Origin: Escherichia phage vB_EcoM_Kelasse
Length of the DNA: 64,000 nucleotides
Strand: one strand, 5' to 3'
Sequence record: MW749001.1
In this document: positions 2,337 through 23,854 of the stretch, piece by piece
How positions within the stretch are numbered: the first letter of the stretch is position 1
Layout: the number at the start of each line of letters is the position of its first letter
Program-made: the position numbers and the translations under genes
The notes under the pieces: model-generated
What the model saw: the letters and a program-made list of their open reading frames with translations, nothing else
Told to the model about the DNA's origin: nothing
Database searches by the model: none

Positions 2337-3902
2337 ATGACTATCAAAACTAAAGCTGAACTTTTGAACAAATGGAAGCCATTACTGGAAGGTGAAGGTT
2401 TACCGGAAATTGCTAATAGCAAACAAGCGATTATCGCTAAAATCTTTGAAAACCAGGAAAAAGATTTCCAGACAGCTCCGGAATATAAAGACGAAAAAAT
2501 TGCTCAGGCATTCGGTTCTTTCTTAACAGAAGCTGAAATTGGTGGTGACCACGGTTACAATGCTACCAACATCGCTGCAGGTCAGACTTCTGGCGCAGTA
2601 ACCCAGATTGGCCCGGCTGTTATGGGTATGGTACGTCGTGCTATTCCTAACCTGATTGCTTTCGATATTTGCGGTGTTCAGCCGATGAACAGCCCGACTG
2701 GTCAGGTATTCGCACTGCGCGCAGTATATGGTAAAGACCCAATCGCTTCCGGCGCTAAAGAAGCATTCCACCCAATGTATGGTCCAGATGCAATGTTCTC
2801 TGGTCAGGGTGCTGCTAAGAAATTCGCTGCTTTGAAAGCAAGTGATACTCTTGAAGTCGGAACTATTTACACTCACTTCTTCCAGGAAACTGGTACAGTA
2901 TATCTGCAAGCTACAGAAGTTAAACAAATTGATTCAGGCGCATCTGACGCAGACAAATTAGATGCTGAAATTAAGAAACAAATGGAAGCAGGTGTACTGG
3001 TAGAAATCGCTGAAGGTATGGCTACTTCTATCGCTGAACTTCAGGAAGGTTTTAACGGTTCTACCGATAACCCATGGAATGAAATGGGCTTCCGTATCGA
3101 TAAGCAAGTTATCGAAGCTAAATCTCGTCAGCTGAAAGCTGCTTACTCTATTGAATTAGCACAAGACCTTCGCGCTGTTCATGGTATGGATGCTGATGCT
3201 GAACTGTCTGGTATTCTGGCTACCGAAATTATGCTGGAAATCAACCGTGAAGTTGTTGATTGGATTAACTACTCTGCTCAGGTTGGTAAATCTGGTATGA
3301 CCCTGACTCCGGGTTCTAAAGCTGGTGTATTTGACTTCCAGGACCCAATCGATATTCGTGGTGCTCGCTGGGCGGGTGAATCCTTTAAAGCTCTGTTGTT
3401 CCAGATTGACAAAGAAGCAGTTGAAATTGCTCGTCAGACCGGTCGTGGTGAAGGTAACTTCATTATCGCTTCCCGTAACGTAGTTAACGTTCTGGCTTCA
3501 GTTGATACCGGCATTTCTTATGCTGCACAAGGTCTGGCTACCGGCTTTAACACTGATACTACCAAGTCAGTATTTGCTGGTGTTCTGGGTGGTAAATACC
3601 GTGTATATATCGACCAGTATGCTAAACAGGATTATTTCACTGTAGGTTATAAAGGTCCGAACGAAATGGATGCTGGTATTTACTACGCTCCATATGTAGC
3701 TCTGACTCCACTGCGTGGTTCTGATCCGAAGAACTTCCAACCGGTAATGGGGTTCAAAACTCGTTACGGTATCGGTATCAACCCATTTGCAGAATCCGCT
3801 GCTCAGGCTCCGGCTTCTCGCATTCAGAGTGGTATGCCTTCTATCCTGAACAGCCTTGGTAAGAACGCTTACTTTAGACGTGTATATGTTAAAGGTATCT
3901 AA
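2337..3902 (+). CDS. 23: major capsid protein
   Basis: 521 aa, MTIKTKAELLNKWKPLLEGEGLPEIANSKQAIIAKIFENQ; strong codon usage; terminator downstream. Confidence 0.95.
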   Translation: MTIKTKAELLNKWKPLLEGEGLPEIANSKQAIIAKIFENQEKDFQTAPEYKDEKIAQAFGSFLTEAEIGGDHGYNATNIAAGQTSGAVTQIGPAVMGMVRRAIPNLIAFDICGVQPMNSPTGQVFALRAVYGKDPIASGAKEAFHPMYGPDAMFSGQGAAKKFAALKASDTLEVGTIYTHFFQETGTVYLQATEVKQIDSGASDADKLDAEIKKQMEAGVLVEIAEGMATSIAELQEGFNGSTDNPWNEMGFRIDKQVIEAKSRQLKAAYSIELAQDLRAVHGMDADAELSGILATEIMLEINREVVDWINYSAQVGKSGMTLTPGSKAGVFDFQDPIDIRGARWAGESFKALLFQIDKEAVEIARQTGRGEGNFIIASRNVVNVLASVDTGISYAAQGLATGFNTDTTKSVFAGVLGGKYRVYIDQYAKQDYFTVGYKGPNEMDAGIYYAPYVALTPLRGSDPKNFQPVMGFKTRYGIGINPFAESAAQAPASRIQSGMPSILNSLGKNAYFRRVYVKGI

Positions 3903-3916
3903 TCTTTGACGATTTA

Positions 3917-3934
3917 AGGGACCTTCGGGTCCCT
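3917..3934 (+). terminator. stem-loop terminator after gene 23
   Basis: GGGACC-TTCG-GGTCCC followed by T-rich run. Confidence 0.6.
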
Positions 3935-3950
3935 TTAGTTGTTTTTATGG

Positions 3951-3958
3951 TATAAATA
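3951..3958 (+). promoter_or_regulatory. late promoter TATAAATA (gene 24)
   Basis: Exact TATAAATA between gene 23 terminator and gene 24. Confidence 0.65.
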
Positions 3959-3985
3959 AATCATATAAACCAAAAGGAAAGCGCA

Positions 3986-5269
3986 ATGGCTAAAATCAAC
4001 GAACTTCTGCGCGAATCAACCACAACGAATAGCAACTCAATCGGTCGCCCAAATCTCGTTGCTTTGACTCGCGCTACCACTAAATTAATATATTCTGACA
4101 TTGTAGCAACGCAAAGAACTAATCAACCTGTTGCTGCTTTTTATGGTATCAAATACCTTAACCCAGACAATGAATTTACATTTAAAACTGGTGCTACTTA
4201 TGCTGGCGAAGCTGGATATGTAGACCGAGAACAAATCACAGAATTAACAGAAGAGTCTAAATTAACTCTCAATAAAGGCGATTTATTCAAATATAATAAT
4301 ATCGTTTATAAAGTATTAGAAGATACACCATTTGCTGATATTGAAGAAAGCGATTTAGAATTGGCTCTTCAGATTGCAATTGTTCTTTTAAAGGTTCGTC
4401 TATTTTCTGACGCAGCGTCAACAAGCAAATTTGAAAGCTCTGATAGTGAAATTGCGGATGCTAGATTCCAGATTAATAAATGGCAAACCGCAGTTAAATC
4501 TCGCAAACTTAAAACTGGTATCACAGTTGAATTAGCACAAGATTTAGAAGCAAATGGATTCGATGCTCCTAATTTCTTGGAAGATTTGCTTGCAACTGAA
4601 ATGGCAGATGAAATCAATAAAGATATTCTGCAGTCTTTGATTACAGTATCAAAACGTTATAAAGTTACAGGAATTACTGATACTGGATTCATTGATTTGA
4701 GTTATGCATCTGCACCTGAAGCTGGTCGTTCATTATATCGAATGGTATGTGAAATGGTTTCACATATCCAAAAAGAATCAACTTATACAGCAACGTTCTG
4801 TGTTGCTTCAGCTCGTGCTGCTGCGATTCTTGCTGCATCAGGTTGGTTAAAACATAAACCAGAAGATGATAAATATCTTTCACAAAATGCCTATGGGTTT
4901 TTAGCTAATGGTTTACCACTTTATTGCGATACTAACAGCCCATTAGATTATGTAATCGTTGGCGTAGTAGAAAATATCGGTGAAAAAGAAATTGTTGGAT
5001 CAATTTTCTATGCTCCGTATACAGAAGGTCTCGACTTAGATGACCCTGAACATGTAGGTGCATTTAAAGTTGTTGTTGATCCAGAAAGCTTACAGCCGTC
5101 TATCGGTTTATTAGTTAGATATGCTTTATCAGCAAATCCTTATACCGTAGCAAAAGATGAAAAAGAAGCAAGAATAATTGATGGTGGAGACATGGATAAA
5201 ATGGCGGGTCGTTCAGATTTGTCTGTTTTATTAGGTGTTAAATTACCAAAAATTATCATTGATGAATAA
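3986..5269 (+). CDS. 24: capsid vertex protein (gp23 paralog)
   Basis: 427 aa, MAKINELLRESTTTNSNSIGRPNLVALTRATTKLIYSDIVATQRTNQP; TATAAATA promoter upstream. Confidence 0.9.
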   Translation: MAKINELLRESTTTNSNSIGRPNLVALTRATTKLIYSDIVATQRTNQPVAAFYGIKYLNPDNEFTFKTGATYAGEAGYVDREQITELTEESKLTLNKGDLFKYNNIVYKVLEDTPFADIEESDLELALQIAIVLLKVRLFSDAASTSKFESSDSEIADARFQINKWQTAVKSRKLKTGITVELAQDLEANGFDAPNFLEDLLATEMADEINKDILQSLITVSKRYKVTGITDTGFIDLSYASAPEAGRSLYRMVCEMVSHIQKESTYTATFCVASARAAAILAASGWLKHKPEDDKYLSQNAYGFLANGLPLYCDTNSPLDYVIVGVVENIGEKEIVGSIFYAPYTEGLDLDDPEHVGAFKVVVDPESLQPSIGLLVRYALSANPYTVAKDEKEARIIDGGDMDKMAGRSDLSVLLGVKLPKIIIDE

Positions 5270-19079: not shown

Positions 19080-19083
19080 CAAT

Positions 19084-19101
19084 GGGGACCGAAAGGTCCC
19101 C
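19084..19101. terminator. bidirectional terminator between gene 54 and minus-strand ORF
   Basis: GGGGACC-GAAA-GGTCCCC followed by ATATTTTTATTT. Confidence 0.65.
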
Positions 19102-19107
19102 ATATTT

Positions 19108-19398
19108 TTATTTACGGAATGAAATAAAAGCAGCAACTGAAGCAACTAAACTGTCTTCAATATAAACCTCAATTTTTACCGGAGCTTCTGACTCAAATTT
19201 ACCTGTTACTACACCTTGGAAAATACTTTCAGTCTGTTCTGGCTTTGAAAAATTTTCAGAAGGAAAAATTCCGAACTTTTTATCTGTTCCAAAAATTTTG
19301 ATAAATTCATCGTAAACTGCTTCATTAAAAGCATTATCAGCAGGAATAACGCCTTCAACTACAAGTTCTTGACCTAAAAAGCGCAAAGAAGATTTCAT
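19108..19398 (-). CDS. hypothetical protein downstream of alt
   Basis: 96 aa ORF with GAGGA SD; driven by repeated early-promoter cassette. Confidence 0.5.
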   Translation of the reverse strand: MKSSLRFLGQELVVEGVIPADNAFNEAVYDEFIKIFGTDKKFGIFPSENFSKPEQTESIFQGVVTGKFESEAPVKIEVYIEDSLVASVAAFISFRK

Positions 19399-19429: not shown

Positions 19430-19459
19430 ACTATAACACAACACGAGGGACTTGTAAAC
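19430..19459 (-). promoter_or_regulatory. early promoter (GTTTAC -35, 18-nt spacer, TATAGT -10)
   Basis: Minus strand GTTTAC-N18-TATAGT then leader with GAGGA SD; part of a 54-bp exact repeat. Confidence 0.5.
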
Positions 19460-21516
19460 TACATTTTGAACTTTTTAGACATTCCGTTGATGTTAACCAA
19501 AGAAGCCAAGATTTGAGAAACTTCGTTTTCCTCTTCTTTTGATTCTTCTACAAGGAATTGATTAAATCCAGCCATTGGACGAACTTCACCAGTTTCCATT
19601 AGATGGTCGCCATCATATACCGATTCCTCTAATTGTTCAGAAGGAGGAACGATTGTACCTTCTATTAGATACTTGTTATAAGCAGTTTCTTTCATAAAGT
19701 ACGTGCTCACTTTATTAATCTTCAGTAAAATTCCACGCGGTAGAATAACTTCAGCTTCTGATGGAAATCCTGATAAATGACCTGGAACGATAACTTTGAT
19801 TCGCTCAGCTCCTTTAATTACCATACCCACGCTAGTTTCAGCATCTTCATTAGCATATGTAGAATGACTACCCATATGCATCAAATCTTCTGCATCAACG
19901 GAACCTTCTCCTTCGCCAGAAAATACTGCGCCGGAATCATCTAGAGCCATATAGTTTTTACCATGCTCACCGAAGATATTTGGTTTAAGCGATGTGGATA
20001 CGAAGTTCTTGAAATAGAACATTTTATTTTCAATGTTATGACGCAAAGTTTTAAAGGTAACTTCTTGTCCACGGTAAAGTGTAGTTCCTGGAGGAAGAAC
20101 TGAACCTTTAGCGAATGCAGAATCAAGCGTCTCAATATGTTTAATAGCTCGTTCCATATATTCTTCACGGGTAGAATCTGGTTTACCCAAAAGGAACGAG
20201 TTCATTTCAACATATGAATCTGCACAATAATCTTCAATTACATCAGACTCAGCCTGAGTTAATCCTTTTGGAGTTACTTCAGTACTTGCATATTCATATG
20301 CCTGAGCGGCAGATTCATTAATCAATTTATAAATGCCATTCATGACAAATTGAATAATAGCTGTCTTTTCATCTGGTGTAGCTTTAGAACCTTTAACTAA
20401 ATCATTGATAATTTTCTTAATAACATCAAAGCTATTAGAAATATTAATGTCAGCAAGATCGCTTAAAATTTTATCAGTTTTATAATCAAAGAATTCTTTA
20501 TTCTTTAAATATTCTTGAGAACCTTGATATGTTATATCGCTCTGCAGCTTGATAGATGGATCGCGTAAACGTGCATGGGCCAATGCAATATGATTTCGGA
20601 AGTTTTCTAGTTCATAATCGTTAGATTTAAAACGAGAAGCACTTCTCATACCACCGATAGCTCCTTTGCTAAAGTTTGAACCAATCTGAATAACGCCAGA
20701 GTTCATCGGACCTTCTGCTTTATATACCGGAACTTTAGATTCAAACTCTTGATATTTCTTAGCAGCGAAGCTATCACCCTGAAGTGAAGCATCAACAGTA
20801 GAATATTGAGCTTGTGCTGCTAATCGACGACTAATTTTAGTTTTCTGAATAACAGCTTGATCCGTGCGCTTATCATTTTCTAAAGCAATAGAAGCAGCAA
20901 CAGCGACAGCTTTAGGAACAGCATTACCTGTTTTAACGTCTACATAAACATCACCAACCTTTGATTCAACTTTTGTGAATAACTCAGTTGAAATAGGAGG
21001 TACACCTGGAATGTCTTCTAAATTGGCATTTTTACGGTAAACCATAATATATGCATATTTCTTATCATAGTCCCAGATTTCCTTTAAAAGAACATATCGA
21101 CCTGCTCCTTTAGTACGTACTAAACGGTCAGCAATAACTTGCATTTGACGAGCTGCGCCATTTGTTTTACTCTTTAGTACGCGGAATAAGCATGCATCAA
21201 TTTTATACTGTTTCATTGTTTGAAGAGCAGTATCAAAAACAGCATTAATGACGCCAATTGGATTTCCACCCAAGTTTTTAAGCTTAACTAATGATAGTTT
21301 CTCATTAACACCTATCATTACGATATGCATCATTTTGTCGCCTGGCTTAACGTTTTTATTCGTATCACCGCCAGAGGTGTATGTACAAAATCTAAATCCA
21401 GGAAGCACGCTTTCTTCACCGGCTTGAATAGCAAAAATTTGTGGTATTTTATGCTTAGGATTTAAGTTAACAACCGGCGCCGAAGCGCCGTCAAATAATT
21501 CTGTAATAAGTTCCAT
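19459..21516 (-). CDS. Alt-like mono-ADP-ribosyltransferase, paralog 2
   Basis: 685 aa; N-term MELITELFD...; R-S-E motifs LYRGQ / FVSTSL / EAEVILPRG; SD 3 nt after paralog 1 stop. Confidence 0.8.
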   Translation of the reverse strand: MELITELFDGASAPVVNLNPKHKIPQIFAIQAGEESVLPGFRFCTYTSGGDTNKNVKPGDKMMHIVMIGVNEKLSLVKLKNLGGNPIGVINAVFDTALQTMKQYKIDACLFRVLKSKTNGAARQMQVIADRLVRTKGAGRYVLLKEIWDYDKKYAYIMVYRKNANLEDIPGVPPISTELFTKVESKVGDVYVDVKTGNAVPKAVAVAASIALENDKRTDQAVIQKTKISRRLAAQAQYSTVDASLQGDSFAAKKYQEFESKVPVYKAEGPMNSGVIQIGSNFSKGAIGGMRSASRFKSNDYELENFRNHIALAHARLRDPSIKLQSDITYQGSQEYLKNKEFFDYKTDKILSDLADINISNSFDVIKKIINDLVKGSKATPDEKTAIIQFVMNGIYKLINESAAQAYEYASTEVTPKGLTQAESDVIEDYCADSYVEMNSFLLGKPDSTREEYMERAIKHIETLDSAFAKGSVLPPGTTLYRGQEVTFKTLRHNIENKMFYFKNFVSTSLKPNIFGEHGKNYMALDDSGAVFSGEGEGSVDAEDLMHMGSHSTYANEDAETSVGMVIKGAERIKVIVPGHLSGFPSEAEVILPRGILLKINKVSTYFMKETAYNKYLIEGTIVPPSEQLEESVYDGDHLMETGEVRPMAGFNQFLVEESKEEENEVSQILASLVNINGMSKKFKM

Positions 21517-21519
21517 GAT

Positions 21520-23616
21520 TTATCCTTGAACGAACTTGTAAGGCATGTTTGTAATATCTATGCAAGACGCAATAATTCCAAGAGATGATTCTACTTTCTG
21601 TTTAACGTTTGATGAAACAAATGATGCAAAGTCAACTCTGTCTTCTATTTCAATATCACCTGTCATTGCAACCAATTCACCAGTTTCCATTAAATGGTCT
21701 CCATCATAGATTACCGATTCGGTGAGCTCTTCCGTAGTCATAACTTCAGCTTGAATGAGTTTTGTATTATTAGATGTTGTTCCGTCATTATTAGAAGCAT
21801 CAGTTATTTTATTAACTTTGACCATCAATCCACGCGGTAGAATAACTTCAGCTTCTGTTGCTATTCCGAGACTTCCTGGATATACAACATTAACTTTATG
21901 AGCTCCATCAATTGCCCATCCTATTTGAACTTTAACGTATTCAGGATTTTCTTTATACGCTCTTATTTCGTTTGGATTAATAGTTATTCCTTCTTCATTT
22001 TTATCAACTGTTAATTCATTGCGAGCTTCTGGTTCTAAAAGACCAATACCAGCATGTGTAATTCCAAAACGTCCAAAAATGATAGGAGTTAAAGAAGTAG
22101 ATACAAAATTTCTGAAGTAGAACACTTTATTTTTAACTAACGCTTCATATATAGGAGCAGTCATACTTTGAGCACGATAAACTGTAATGCCTTCTGGTAT
22201 ACGGTCACCATTTTCAAAAGCTGAATCTAAGTTATTTATAGCAGATTCAATTTCTTTTTCACTCATTACATCATATCGTTCTGGATTGTAACGACCTAAA
22301 AGAAGATTATTGATGTCAGTATATCCTGAACCGCAATATTCTCTAATGCCACGCTTTTGTGATGGAGTATATTTAGAACCATCGCGGGCAATAGTAATAT
22401 CAATCATTGGACCAGCACCAATTCCAGAAAAACTGTAAATCATTCGTTTGAGGAATTTAGTTTTTGCTGCGTTCCAGGAATTTTTAGTTATTTCTTCCCA
22501 GACTTCATCTGGTTGTCCTTTACGATTTTTATTATGATTAGCAAGCCATTTATCTTTATAATCTTCAAAGAATTGATTTATAGCTGCTGCGTATTTCTCT
22601 AAACATTTTATTGAAGTAGTTGGTTCATTTTTAATTGCATTAAAAATTACTTCTTTAATTTTTTCTGAAACTTCACCGACTTGACTCATTGGAAAGAATT
22701 TATAATCATAGTGAAGTTCATCTGCCGTTCCTTCAGCAATAATTTTTGCTGCCTTTGTTTTAGAAGCTAATGAATTAATTCCAATTTTCATTTCTTCTGC
22801 TTCGGGAATTAAAGGTGCAGTAGCTGGTTTATTAAAATTAGCTGCTGTAGATTCATACTTCTGGAATAATTCACTTTCAAATCTAGAAGATTCCAATGAC
22901 TGGCTTTGTGCAATTGCTCTACGGGAAATTTTAACTTTAACGATTACAGCTTGGTCAGAACGTTTATCATTTTCTTGCGCAATAGATGCTGCAATTGCTT
23001 CATTTTTGGTTACTTGAGCTCCAGTATCTTTATTAATATAAACATCACCGACCTTCGATTCAACCTTAGTAAAGAGCTCGGTACTAATTTCCGGAACCCC
23101 TGGAATGTCTTCTAGTGATACATTTTTGCGATGTATAAGAATATATGCATACTTTTTATCATAATCCCAGAGTTCCTTAAGAAGGACGTATCTGCCACCT
23201 GAACGACTACGGATAAGTCTATCAGCAATAACTTGAATTTGTCGAGCTTGGCCAGCAGTTTTAGACTTAAGAATACGAAGCATACAAGCATCAATTTTAT
23301 ATTGACGCATTGTTTGCATTGCAACAGTAAAAACTGAATTGATATAATTAATTGGGCTTGGACCAAGACCTTTTAATTTAGCAATTGAACCTTTAGCAGT
23401 TAATGTAAAAGGAACAATATGCATCATTTTGTCGCCCATTTTTAAATCACGATTAGTATCACCTCCAGATGTATAGGTACATAAACGAAAGCCTGGTTGT
23501 TCAATTGCATCATCAACATGAACTGAAAAAATTTGTGGTATTTTCTTCTTTGGATTTAAGTTTGTAATCGGAAGAGTAGTATCTTCGTCAAATAATTCTG
23601 TAATGAGTTCCATCAT
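21520..23616 (-). CDS. alt: Alt mono-ADP-ribosyltransferase (virion-packaged), paralog 1
   Basis: 698 aa (MMELITELFD; true start may be second Met at 23613); R-S-E motifs VYRAQ / FVSTSL / EAEVILPRG; TATAAATA late promoter upstream. Confidence 0.85.
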   Translation of the reverse strand: MMELITELFDEDTTLPITNLNPKKKIPQIFSVHVDDAIEQPGFRLCTYTSGGDTNRDLKMGDKMMHIVPFTLTAKGSIAKLKGLGPSPINYINSVFTVAMQTMRQYKIDACMLRILKSKTAGQARQIQVIADRLIRSRSGGRYVLLKELWDYDKKYAYILIHRKNVSLEDIPGVPEISTELFTKVESKVGDVYINKDTGAQVTKNEAIAASIAQENDKRSDQAVIVKVKISRRAIAQSQSLESSRFESELFQKYESTAANFNKPATAPLIPEAEEMKIGINSLASKTKAAKIIAEGTADELHYDYKFFPMSQVGEVSEKIKEVIFNAIKNEPTTSIKCLEKYAAAINQFFEDYKDKWLANHNKNRKGQPDEVWEEITKNSWNAAKTKFLKRMIYSFSGIGAGPMIDITIARDGSKYTPSQKRGIREYCGSGYTDINNLLLGRYNPERYDVMSEKEIESAINNLDSAFENGDRIPEGITVYRAQSMTAPIYEALVKNKVFYFRNFVSTSLTPIIFGRFGITHAGIGLLEPEARNELTVDKNEEGITINPNEIRAYKENPEYVKVQIGWAIDGAHKVNVVYPGSLGIATEAEVILPRGLMVKVNKITDASNNDGTTSNNTKLIQAEVMTTEELTESVIYDGDHLMETGELVAMTGDIEIEDRVDFASFVSSNVKQKVESSLGIIASCIDITNMPYKFVQG

Positions 23617-23636
23617 ATCCTCTCTAGTGTTTATTC

Positions 23637-23644
23637 TATTTATA
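23637..23644 (-). promoter_or_regulatory. late promoter TATAAATA (alt paralog pair)
   Basis: Minus-strand TATAAATA about 20 nt upstream of alt ATG, just after a hairpin. Confidence 0.55.
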
Positions 23645-23665
23645 AAATTAAAGGCCCGAAGGCCT

Positions 23666-23854
23666 TTAATAATCTATTGGTAAGAGAGTACGATATATTT
23701 CAAACTTTGGACCTTTTTCATAGGCATCAAATGTTTCTGTGAATTTATTATAAGCATATGCATCTATAAATTCAATCATGATTTGTGATACAGAAGTAGA
23801 AACATCTCCACCTTCTTTTTGAGCCACGACAATTGTTTCTAAGTAAGCTTTCAT
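23666..23854 (-). CDS. hypothetical protein
   Basis: 62 aa; start overlaps ligase stop (ATGA-type coupling). Confidence 0.45.
   Translation of the reverse strand: MKAYLETIVVAQKEGGDVSTSVSQIMIEFIDAYAYNKFTETFDAYEKGPKFEIYRTLLPIDY

Follow-up and report, generated by a model that had tools for sequence, protein, structure and literature searches.

The Alt protein of phage T4 is the textbook example of a capsid-carried enzyme that reprograms the host at DNA entry, and nearly all knowledge of it comes from T4. T4 Alt is a NAD+--arginine ADP-ribosyltransferase (ART) of 682 amino acids (aa) that modifies Arg265 of the RNA polymerase alpha subunit. The gene is late at the transcript and protein levels (PMC9697503). 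Its product enters the prohead core, is trimmed by the gp21 protease, is present at ~40 copies per head and is injected with the DNA (PMC9026906). Mass spectrometry of T4 heads placed the gp21 cuts after ITE-6 and LTE-619 (PMC5694885), and the second cut removes 63 C-terminal residues beginning SVIYDGDHLMETGE (PMC5694885, PMC9026906). Here we describe the alt locus of Escherichia phage vB_EcoM_Kelasse (MW749001.1) within a 64,000-nucleotide (nt) stretch of its DNA, hereafter the window, where two intact open reading frames (ORFs), alt and alt2, lie in tandem. The two genes probably encode arginine-specific mono-ADP-ribosyltransferases that share a common delivery chassis and act on distinct targets.

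T4 ModA and ModB are not known to have the N-terminal domain (N-domain), the middle region or either propeptide of Alt. They are also tandem phage R-S-E ARTs with paralog-specific targets (PMC5512222; 10.1101/2021.06.04.446905), and they differ from the Alt proteins in being small, early, not packaged (PMC5512222) and encoded elsewhere in the genome. The C3-like and binary-toxin ARTs (Vis, C3bot, Certhrax, Iota Ia / CdtA / CPILE-a and VIP2) show less than 25% identity and have different N-terminal parts, and they are delivered by secreted toxin pores rather than by a phage capsid. Relative to Iota toxin, the Alt insert between S-T-S and E-x-E presumably amounts to ~45 residues, an estimate that compares the S-T-S to E-x-E spacing in the family alignment with Iota numbering. 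The T-even internal proteins (IPI, IPII, IPIII and Bas37_0260) and polymorphic toxin loci follow the same logic as the locus described here, in which a conserved part for capsid targeting or processing is joined to a hypervariable injected counter-defence payload (PMC9026906; preprint 10.1101/2025.11.20.689424). The internal proteins have a propeptide of only ~10 residues (PMC5694885), whereas the Alt proteins here carry a ~230-aa domain and a 54-65-aa C-propeptide. Their payload was an ART in all cases checked, with the metagenomic protein P0185, described below, as a possible exception.

A 5-kb region around the two genes matched hundreds of Tequatrovirus genomes at 97-99% identity, the top match being phage JLBYU31 (99.1%), and on these matches the window is assigned to Tequatrovirus. 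The gene order is 30 (ligase), alt.1, alt, alt.-2 and alt.-3, followed by gene 54 on the opposite strand. The upstream ORF is the positional ortholog of T4 alt, with matching flanks, late promoter and domain order. Residues 1-245 are ~100% and the C-terminal tail ~95% identical to T4 Alt, and the two proteins agree in R / S-T-S / E-x-E and in both gp21 cleavage motifs. T4 differs in carrying another payload allele, with identities of 31-33% in the middle region and 67% in the ART domain and a synonymous divergence about 10-fold higher in the payload than in the flanks, and it has no working second copy.

The downstream ORF is the gene recorded as alt.-2 or Alt2 in RB14, RB32, wV7 and Bas39-43, with no difference at the sequence level. 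The alt.-2 gene of the RB14 record is 98-99% identical to that of the window, and the Bas39 Alt2 protein is 100% identical. In the BASEL phages Bas39, 40, 41 and 43 the second gene is labelled "ADP-ribosyltransferase Alt2" and the upstream one Alt, and RefSeq names the downstream gene "Alt-like RNA polymerase ADP-ribosyltransferase". At an identity of at least 80%, alt2 was found at full length in ~400 phage records, and a tandem pair is what most Tequatrovirus genomes carry at this locus. The pair is therefore already known as an annotation, because many GenBank records annotate it and discussion of the T4 remnant goes back to the T4 genome paper. A literature search on Alt2 or alt.-2 found only a note in Nolan et al. 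2006 and no functional characterisation. The record of phage GEP001 (PV173775, 504-4658) wrongly names both alt genes 'DNA ligase' and alt.1 'siderophore-interacting protein'.

The first-pass annotation had described tandem Alt-like ADP-ribosyltransferase paralogs of 698 and 685 aa at 19459-23616 without naming the strand. Both ORFs were found there, on the minus strand. They aligned with 41% identity (BLASTP, E = 8e-159), and both passed PF03496 (ADPrib_exo_Tox), at 129.9 bits for alt and 71.9 bits for alt2 against a gathering cut-off of 23.4. The stated lengths are correct, except that the upstream protein more likely has 697 aa and begins MELITE. The second ATG (23613) is favoured over the first (23616) as its start because T4 Alt, the RB14 annotation and the spacing from GAGAGGA agree. 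Both proteins matched phrog_802 over their full length (alt, E = 3e-273; alt2, E = 9e-257). PF26846 (Tevenvirinae_ADPRT), which the local Pfam scan did not return, was precomputed for P0001, which represents the cluster at 99% identity, and for each gene of the diverged pair L005. On every Alt-family test available to sequence or structure (PF26846 with PF03496; PHROG 802), both genes belong to the family.

The catalytic residues are retained in both copies, as the first-pass annotation had held. The aromatic-Arg (YRAQ / YRGQ), S-T-S and E-A-E motifs were intact when checked codon by codon in the window, none of the R, S-T-S or E-x-E residues was lost on alignment, and these columns were invariant in the 12-sequence family alignment. 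The Y-R and E-x-E of the window proteins also aligned with CdtA, and the ART domains of both were structurally similar to solved R-S-E ARTs. Both ART domains, with R / S-T-S / E-x-E intact, are of the C3/VIP2 structural class. When alt and alt2 are compared, their longest exact nucleotide match spans 29 nt (21828-21856 and 19731-19759), lies at gene offset nt 1756 in each gene and codes for the catalytic motif EAEVILPRG, within domains that are otherwise 36% identical. This match may reflect codon-level constraint or a small gene-conversion tract.

The similarity between the two proteins is distributed unevenly. In the family alignment, numbered by alt2, identity was 67% in the N-domain (residues 7-238), 19% in the middle region (239-415), 36% in the ART domain (416-632) and 43% in the C-terminal tail (633-685). 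These values agree with the conserved N-terminal region of about 230 aa and the strongly diverged central regions that had been noticed in the first pass. Distant homology of the two middle regions, both predicted to be all-helical, was rejected, since a 7-sequence A-type profile aligned by hhalign with a 6-sequence B-type profile reached a probability of 0.4%. With the alt2 middle region alone as query, an index of 5.8 billion proteins yielded no more than a 112-aa fragment, a search limited by its word index. Within the ART domain, divergence was greatest in the long insert between S-T-S and E-x-E. The alt N-domain matches that of T4 Alt at 100% identity, and the alt2 N-domain at 67%. The AlphaFold2 models of both proteins, built on the shallow 12-sequence alignment, reached a predicted local distance difference test (pLDDT) score of 73-74. 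They showed the same layout, namely a short disordered N-terminus, an alpha/beta domain at ~11-195, a helical linker, an all-helical middle at ~245-410, an ART domain at ~415-630 and a low-confidence tail.

The chassis shared by the two proteins consists of a 6-residue I-T-E propeptide, a ~190-aa alpha/beta N-domain with its helical linker, and a C-terminal tail in which S-V-(I)-YDGDHLMETGE directly follows L-x-E. ITE-6 is kept in both proteins, and the second site reads LTE-632|S in alt and LEE-631|S in alt2. E6, E631, S632, Y634-D-G-D, E-x-G-E and the terminal K-F were invariant or nearly so across genera. All motifs that the first-pass annotation had listed for the C-terminal ART core are present, but one of them, YDGDHLMETGE, lies beyond the ART domain and is the start of the C-terminal propeptide, because gp21 cuts T4 Alt after LTE-619. 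This tail had low pLDDT in both models. The most conserved parts of the paralogs are therefore those that, in T4 Alt, are tied to prohead entry and processing. We infer that Alt2 is packaged in the head and has host targets different from those of Alt, and both readings are strengthened by the conserved processing motifs, by purifying selection and by natural gene fusions.

The selection on alt2 was estimated against its orthologs in RB14, GEP001 and REP2. The ratio of nonsynonymous to synonymous substitution rates (dN/dS) was 0.037-0.056 at a synonymous divergence (dS) of 0.16-0.22. It was low in every domain, with 0.02-0.05 in the ART domain and 0.07-0.11 in the middle region. Thus, alt2 is under strong purifying selection. 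Furthermore, ECML-134, SCS4 and Yersinia phage PST, all finished genomes, each have just one alt gene, a clean fusion, preceded by the same late promoter, that joins the alt N-terminus to the alt2 body, with breakpoints at nt 461-474 in ECML-134 and nt 296-306 in PST. A pseudogene reading of alt2 was ruled out by the dN/dS values together with these genomes. Two further alt/alt2 junctions were found in the metagenomic proteins P0005 and P0006. Their explanation as assembly artefacts was rejected, as the same fusion type occurs in three finished genomes and the longest exact match between the genes is 29 nt. Both single-payload states therefore exist in nature, and a phage can be viable with no payload other than that of alt2. 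In the extracted ECML-134 and PST loci (L007, L008), the fusion genes lie at 2501-4561.

The comparison with T4 alt and its neighbouring small ORFs, which the first-pass annotation had proposed, identified the upstream gene as alt and the small ORFs alt.-1/alt.-2 as a remnant of the downstream gene. In a DNA alignment, the first ~350 nt of T4 alt.-1/alt.-2 (AF158101, L002 4053-4438) were ~97% identical to the window alt2. A 1-nt deletion shifts the frame, and ~1.7 kb is missing between CTAAA(A/G)AGT repeats of 9 nt, one at codons ~113-116 and the other in the last codons (SKKF), so that the remnant ends at the original alt2 stop. From the frameshift, the ~1.7-kb loss and the shared stop, T4 is a deletion derivative of the two-gene state. 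The profiles phrog_23015 and phrog_15247 (61 and 67 residues), which we take to be the T4 alt.-1 and alt.-2 fragments, matched the downstream copy much better than the upstream one. The T4 annotators and Nolan et al. 2006 (PMC1524935) had regarded alt.-1/alt.-2 as an old duplication of the alt start.

The same tandem was found in Dhakavirus OP292222, where genes of 694 and 707 aa are separated by a 3-nt spacer and followed by alt.-3. In the window and in Dhakavirus, the two copies within one genome shared 64-67% identity in the N-domain and 35% in the ART domain. Between the window and Dhakavirus, positional orthologs shared 42-47% in the N-domain, and in the ART domain 94% for the upstream and 58% for the downstream copy. 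A four-point bootstrap paired the N-domains within genomes (100%) and the ART domain and C-tail by position (100%). From these patterns we conclude that the alt/alt2 duplication predates Tequatrovirus and Dhakavirus. The N-domains follow the genome in which they sit, through gene conversion or co-adaptation to the capsid, and the ART payloads are cassettes that recombine across phage lineages and follow gene position.

One such exchange appears to be recent. The ART domain of the window alt (21720-22400) was 94% identical at the protein level to that of the upstream Dhakavirus Alt (L009 1913-3997), whereas the N-domains of the same two genes were 46% identical, which indicates that an ART cassette has recently been exchanged between the genera. 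At the nucleotide level, identity between these genes was 50-60% in the N-domain, 85-96% over codons ~406-630 and ~50% in the tail. Third-position identity over the same codons was 63-93%. Between the window alt and T4 alt the pattern was complementary, with a dS of 1.25-1.35 in the payload against 0.13 for the N-domain and 0.08 for the C-tail. A T4-type alt together with a full-length alt2 was found in ES21 and G9062. Either payload can be lost, as T4 has lost alt2, and ECML-134 and PST have lost the alt payload.

The N-domain is rare. It formed 69 clusters at 50% identity among 1.84 billion representatives and was almost always the N-terminus of an ART protein of 600-712 aa. A 24-sequence N-domain profile found no GNAT match in the PDB sequences (best E = 0.14, ribosomal protein eS12) or in Pfam, and the GNAT reading was rejected at the sequence level on these searches. 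A K-x-x-G-x-A motif is present in the T-even N-domains, with the final G/A not conserved in the wider family, and a Foldseek search against viral models (BFVD) returned only Alt homologs. As a weaker possibility, the shared N-domain may be a GNAT-fold module with its own ligand-binding or enzymatic activity. Eight of the ten atypical family members still have PF03496, one of them (P0123) only below the cut-off, and P0184 has a reduced ART-like C-terminus by eye. Only the metagenomic protein P0185 (541 aa) has an unassigned C-terminal region. Behind its Alt-type N-domain lie ~380 residues to which neither Pfam nor PHROG gave an assignment and in which no R-S-E motifs are visible. P0188 (786 aa) has an N-terminus nearly identical to that of P0185 and does have an ART domain. 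These two proteins hint that the N-domain can deliver non-ART payloads.

In the mechanism proposed from these comparisons, alt and alt2 would be transcribed together late in infection and translated from separate ribosome-binding sites. Alt and Alt2 would enter the prohead core, be trimmed at both ends by gp21, remain in the head and be injected with the DNA at the next infection. With host NAD+, each would then ADP-ribosylate its own set of host proteins (for T4 Alt, RNA polymerase alpha, MazF and others), and this modification would support takeover and counter-defence. Alt2 is expected to take the route of T4 Alt because it keeps all route-specific features. Its targets are expected to differ, given the unrelated middle region and the strong divergence of the ART domain, especially in the S-T-S to E-x-E insert. 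Its packaging is more certain than its distinct targets. More tentatively, the alt locus as a whole could be a polymorphic injected-effector locus, with the N-domain and C-propeptide as capsid-delivery modules and as recombination anchors for the swapping of ART cassettes within and between T-even genera. Alt2 would then be an old lineage, maintained separately rather than as a spare copy of Alt, with its own targets, probably a host defence system.

Three other explanations of the pair were weighed. It seems rather improbable, though it is the best placed of the three, that both copies share their targets, namely RNA polymerase alpha Arg265 and the rest of the Alt set, and that the duplication provides dosage or robustness. 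Both proteins have the E-x-E typical of arginine-specific ARTs and 29 identical nt over EAEVILPRG, and T4 Alt is promiscuous with many targets (PMC5512222). However, the ART domains are only 36% identical and differ most in the S-T-S to E-x-E insert, the middle regions are unrelated, and the payload lineages have been distinct since before the Tequatrovirus/Dhakavirus split. Alt variants are also not interchangeable against Mokosh type I, where T4 Alt rescues plating and Bas37 Alt cannot substitute for it (preprint 10.1101/2025.11.20.689424). It is unlikely that Alt2 is an active but unpackaged ART that acts late inside the producing cell on host or phage proteins. Such a role would fit late expression, the T4 paralogs ModA and ModB (PMC5512222) and our literature search, which found no virion proteomics report on Alt2. 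Yet Alt2 retains the ITE-6 propeptide, the ~230-aa N-domain and the L-x-E|S-V-YDGD C-propeptide, which set packaged Alt apart from ModA and ModB, and the natural fusions place its payload behind the alt N-terminus as the only Alt of the phage.

That alt2 is a redundant duplicate heading for loss, intact in appearance and dispensable, is very improbable. Its frameshifted and internally deleted remnant in T4 fits such a fate, and Alt itself is non-essential in T4 (PMC9026906). Nevertheless, dN/dS is 0.04-0.06 at substantial synonymous divergence and low in all four domains, the catalytic residues are intact, and the gene is full length in ~400 records. A positional ortholog is retained in Dhakavirus, and ECML-134, SCS4 and PST have kept the alt2 payload and lost that of alt. 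We prefer the reading of two packaged ARTs with distinct targets. Several points weigh against it. T4, the best-studied member, does well without alt2, so the gene can be dispensed with in the laboratory. The RNA polymerase specificity of the window alt is extrapolated from T4 Alt, to which its ART domain is 67% and its middle region 31-33% identical. The Bas37 gene of the Mokosh preprint (Bas37_0033) may be either alt or alt2. An internal promoter-like element in alt, described below, could give alt2 partly independent expression. In the literature, no direct evidence was found that Alt2 is present in virions, cleaved by gp21, injected or catalytically active.

These results describe no new kind of system, and the exchange of cassettes across genera and the natural fusion and deletion states provide useful context for a known one. 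Their value is to show where experiments would be easy and are still needed: on whether Alt2 is packaged, whether it is active and what it modifies. T4 derives from the two-gene state by deletion, and most of its relatives encode, and may inject, a pair of different Alt enzymes. Since only some Alt alleles evade Mokosh, Alt2 and the exchangeable ART cassettes are plausible determinants of the hosts and defences that a therapeutic T4-like phage overcomes.

The expression signals of the locus are listed with the other features in Table 1. The first-pass annotation had assigned a late promoter only to the upstream copy. The element TATAAATA does precede alt, and 12 of the 13 related loci that were scanned have it in the same position, but a second copy of it on the same strand lies inside alt. 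This internal element was found in six of the seven window-type alt alleles checked (RB14, REP2, Bas39, 40, 41 and 43), whereas GEP001, T4, the L005 diverged pair and the fusion loci lack it. The internal element may be a secondary late promoter or a chance match. The start of alt2 3 nt after the alt stop, with its own Shine-Dalgarno sequence, was as first described, and the junction reads GGA TAA ATC ATG. No terminator was found between alt and alt2. Sigma-70-like promoter matches for alt2 were not above the shuffled background (27 versus 23.9 +/- 4.1), and no MotA-type motif was found upstream of either start, the sole nearby MotA-box pattern being inside alt2. A separate alt2 promoter was rejected on these grounds. 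Late expression of alt2 would follow from the 3-nt spacing and the lack of a terminator between the genes.

Table 1. Features of the alt locus in window coordinates; domain limits are predicted.
Feature	Position	Strand	Details
alt (copy A)	21520-23613	minus	697 aa; 698 aa if ATG at 23616 used
alt domain layout, predicted			propeptide 1-6 (ITE|L), N-domain 7-239, helical middle 240-412, ART ~413-632, C-propeptide 633-697
alt R480	22174-22176	minus	catalytic codon
alt S505	22099-22101	minus	catalytic codon
alt S507	22093-22095	minus	catalytic codon
alt E587	21853-21855	minus	catalytic codon
alt E589	21847-21849	minus	catalytic codon
alt2 (alt.-2; copy B)	19459-21516	minus	685 aa
alt2 propeptide, predicted	21499-21516	minus	residues 1-6 (ITE|L)
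alt2 N-domain, predicted	20803-21498	minus	residues 7-238
alt2 helical middle, predicted	20272-20802	minus	residues 239-415
alt2 ART, predicted	19624-20271	minus	residues 416-631
alt2 C-propeptide, predicted	19462-19623	minus	residues 632-685, after QLEE|S
alt2 R482	20071-20073	minus	catalytic codon
alt2 S507	19996-19998	minus	catalytic codon
alt2 S509	19990-19992	minus	catalytic codon
alt2 E587	19756-19758	minus	catalytic codon
alt2 E589	19750-19752	minus	catalytic codon
T4-type late promoter element TATAAATA	23637-23644	minus	exact match; 23 nt before alt ATG 23613
Shine-Dalgarno GAGAGGA for alt	23618-23624	minus	read from sequence
Second TATAAATA	22233-22240	minus	inside alt, codons A-I-N-N; 717 nt before alt2 start
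Shine-Dalgarno AAGGA for alt2	21523-21527	minus	within last alt codons, 6 nt before alt2 ATG
alt stop TAA	21520-21522	minus	followed by spacer
Spacer ATC	21517-21519	minus	3 nt
Terminator-like hairpin	23647-23670	minus	end of alt.1; 10-bp stem, UUCG loop, then UUUUAU; -13.5 kcal/mol, z = -3.3 vs shuffles
alt.1	23666-23854	minus	62 aa; Pfam 'Phage_blade' PF24647, E = 7.5e-29; start overlaps ligase end by 4 nt
alt.-3 sigma-70-like promoter match	19430-19458	minus	TTTACA-17-TATAGT with TG
alt.-3	19108-19398	minus	96 aa, DUF5498, PF17602 E = 1.4e-64; last gene of minus-strand block
Bidirectional terminator hairpin	19082-19103	both	between alt.-3 and gene 54; 9-bp stem, 6 G-C pairs

The strong hairpin directly before the late promoter element of alt is probably where the gene 30/alt.1 transcript ends, which would separate alt from it. 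The bidirectional hairpin before gene 54 is probably the 3' end of an alt-alt2-alt.-3 late transcript. The last gene of this block has a described role in T4, where C-terminal extension mutants of Alt.-3 evade the CmdTAC defence (PMC11618068).

T4-like phages differ widely in how many alt genes they have and in whether these are intact. In the Acinetobacter phages ZZ1 and Henu6 (BFVD I3WW50, A0A410T5F4 and A0A410T542), the Alt genes are annotated as 'split', and in phage AnYang (MK234886) the alt payload was matched at three separate places.

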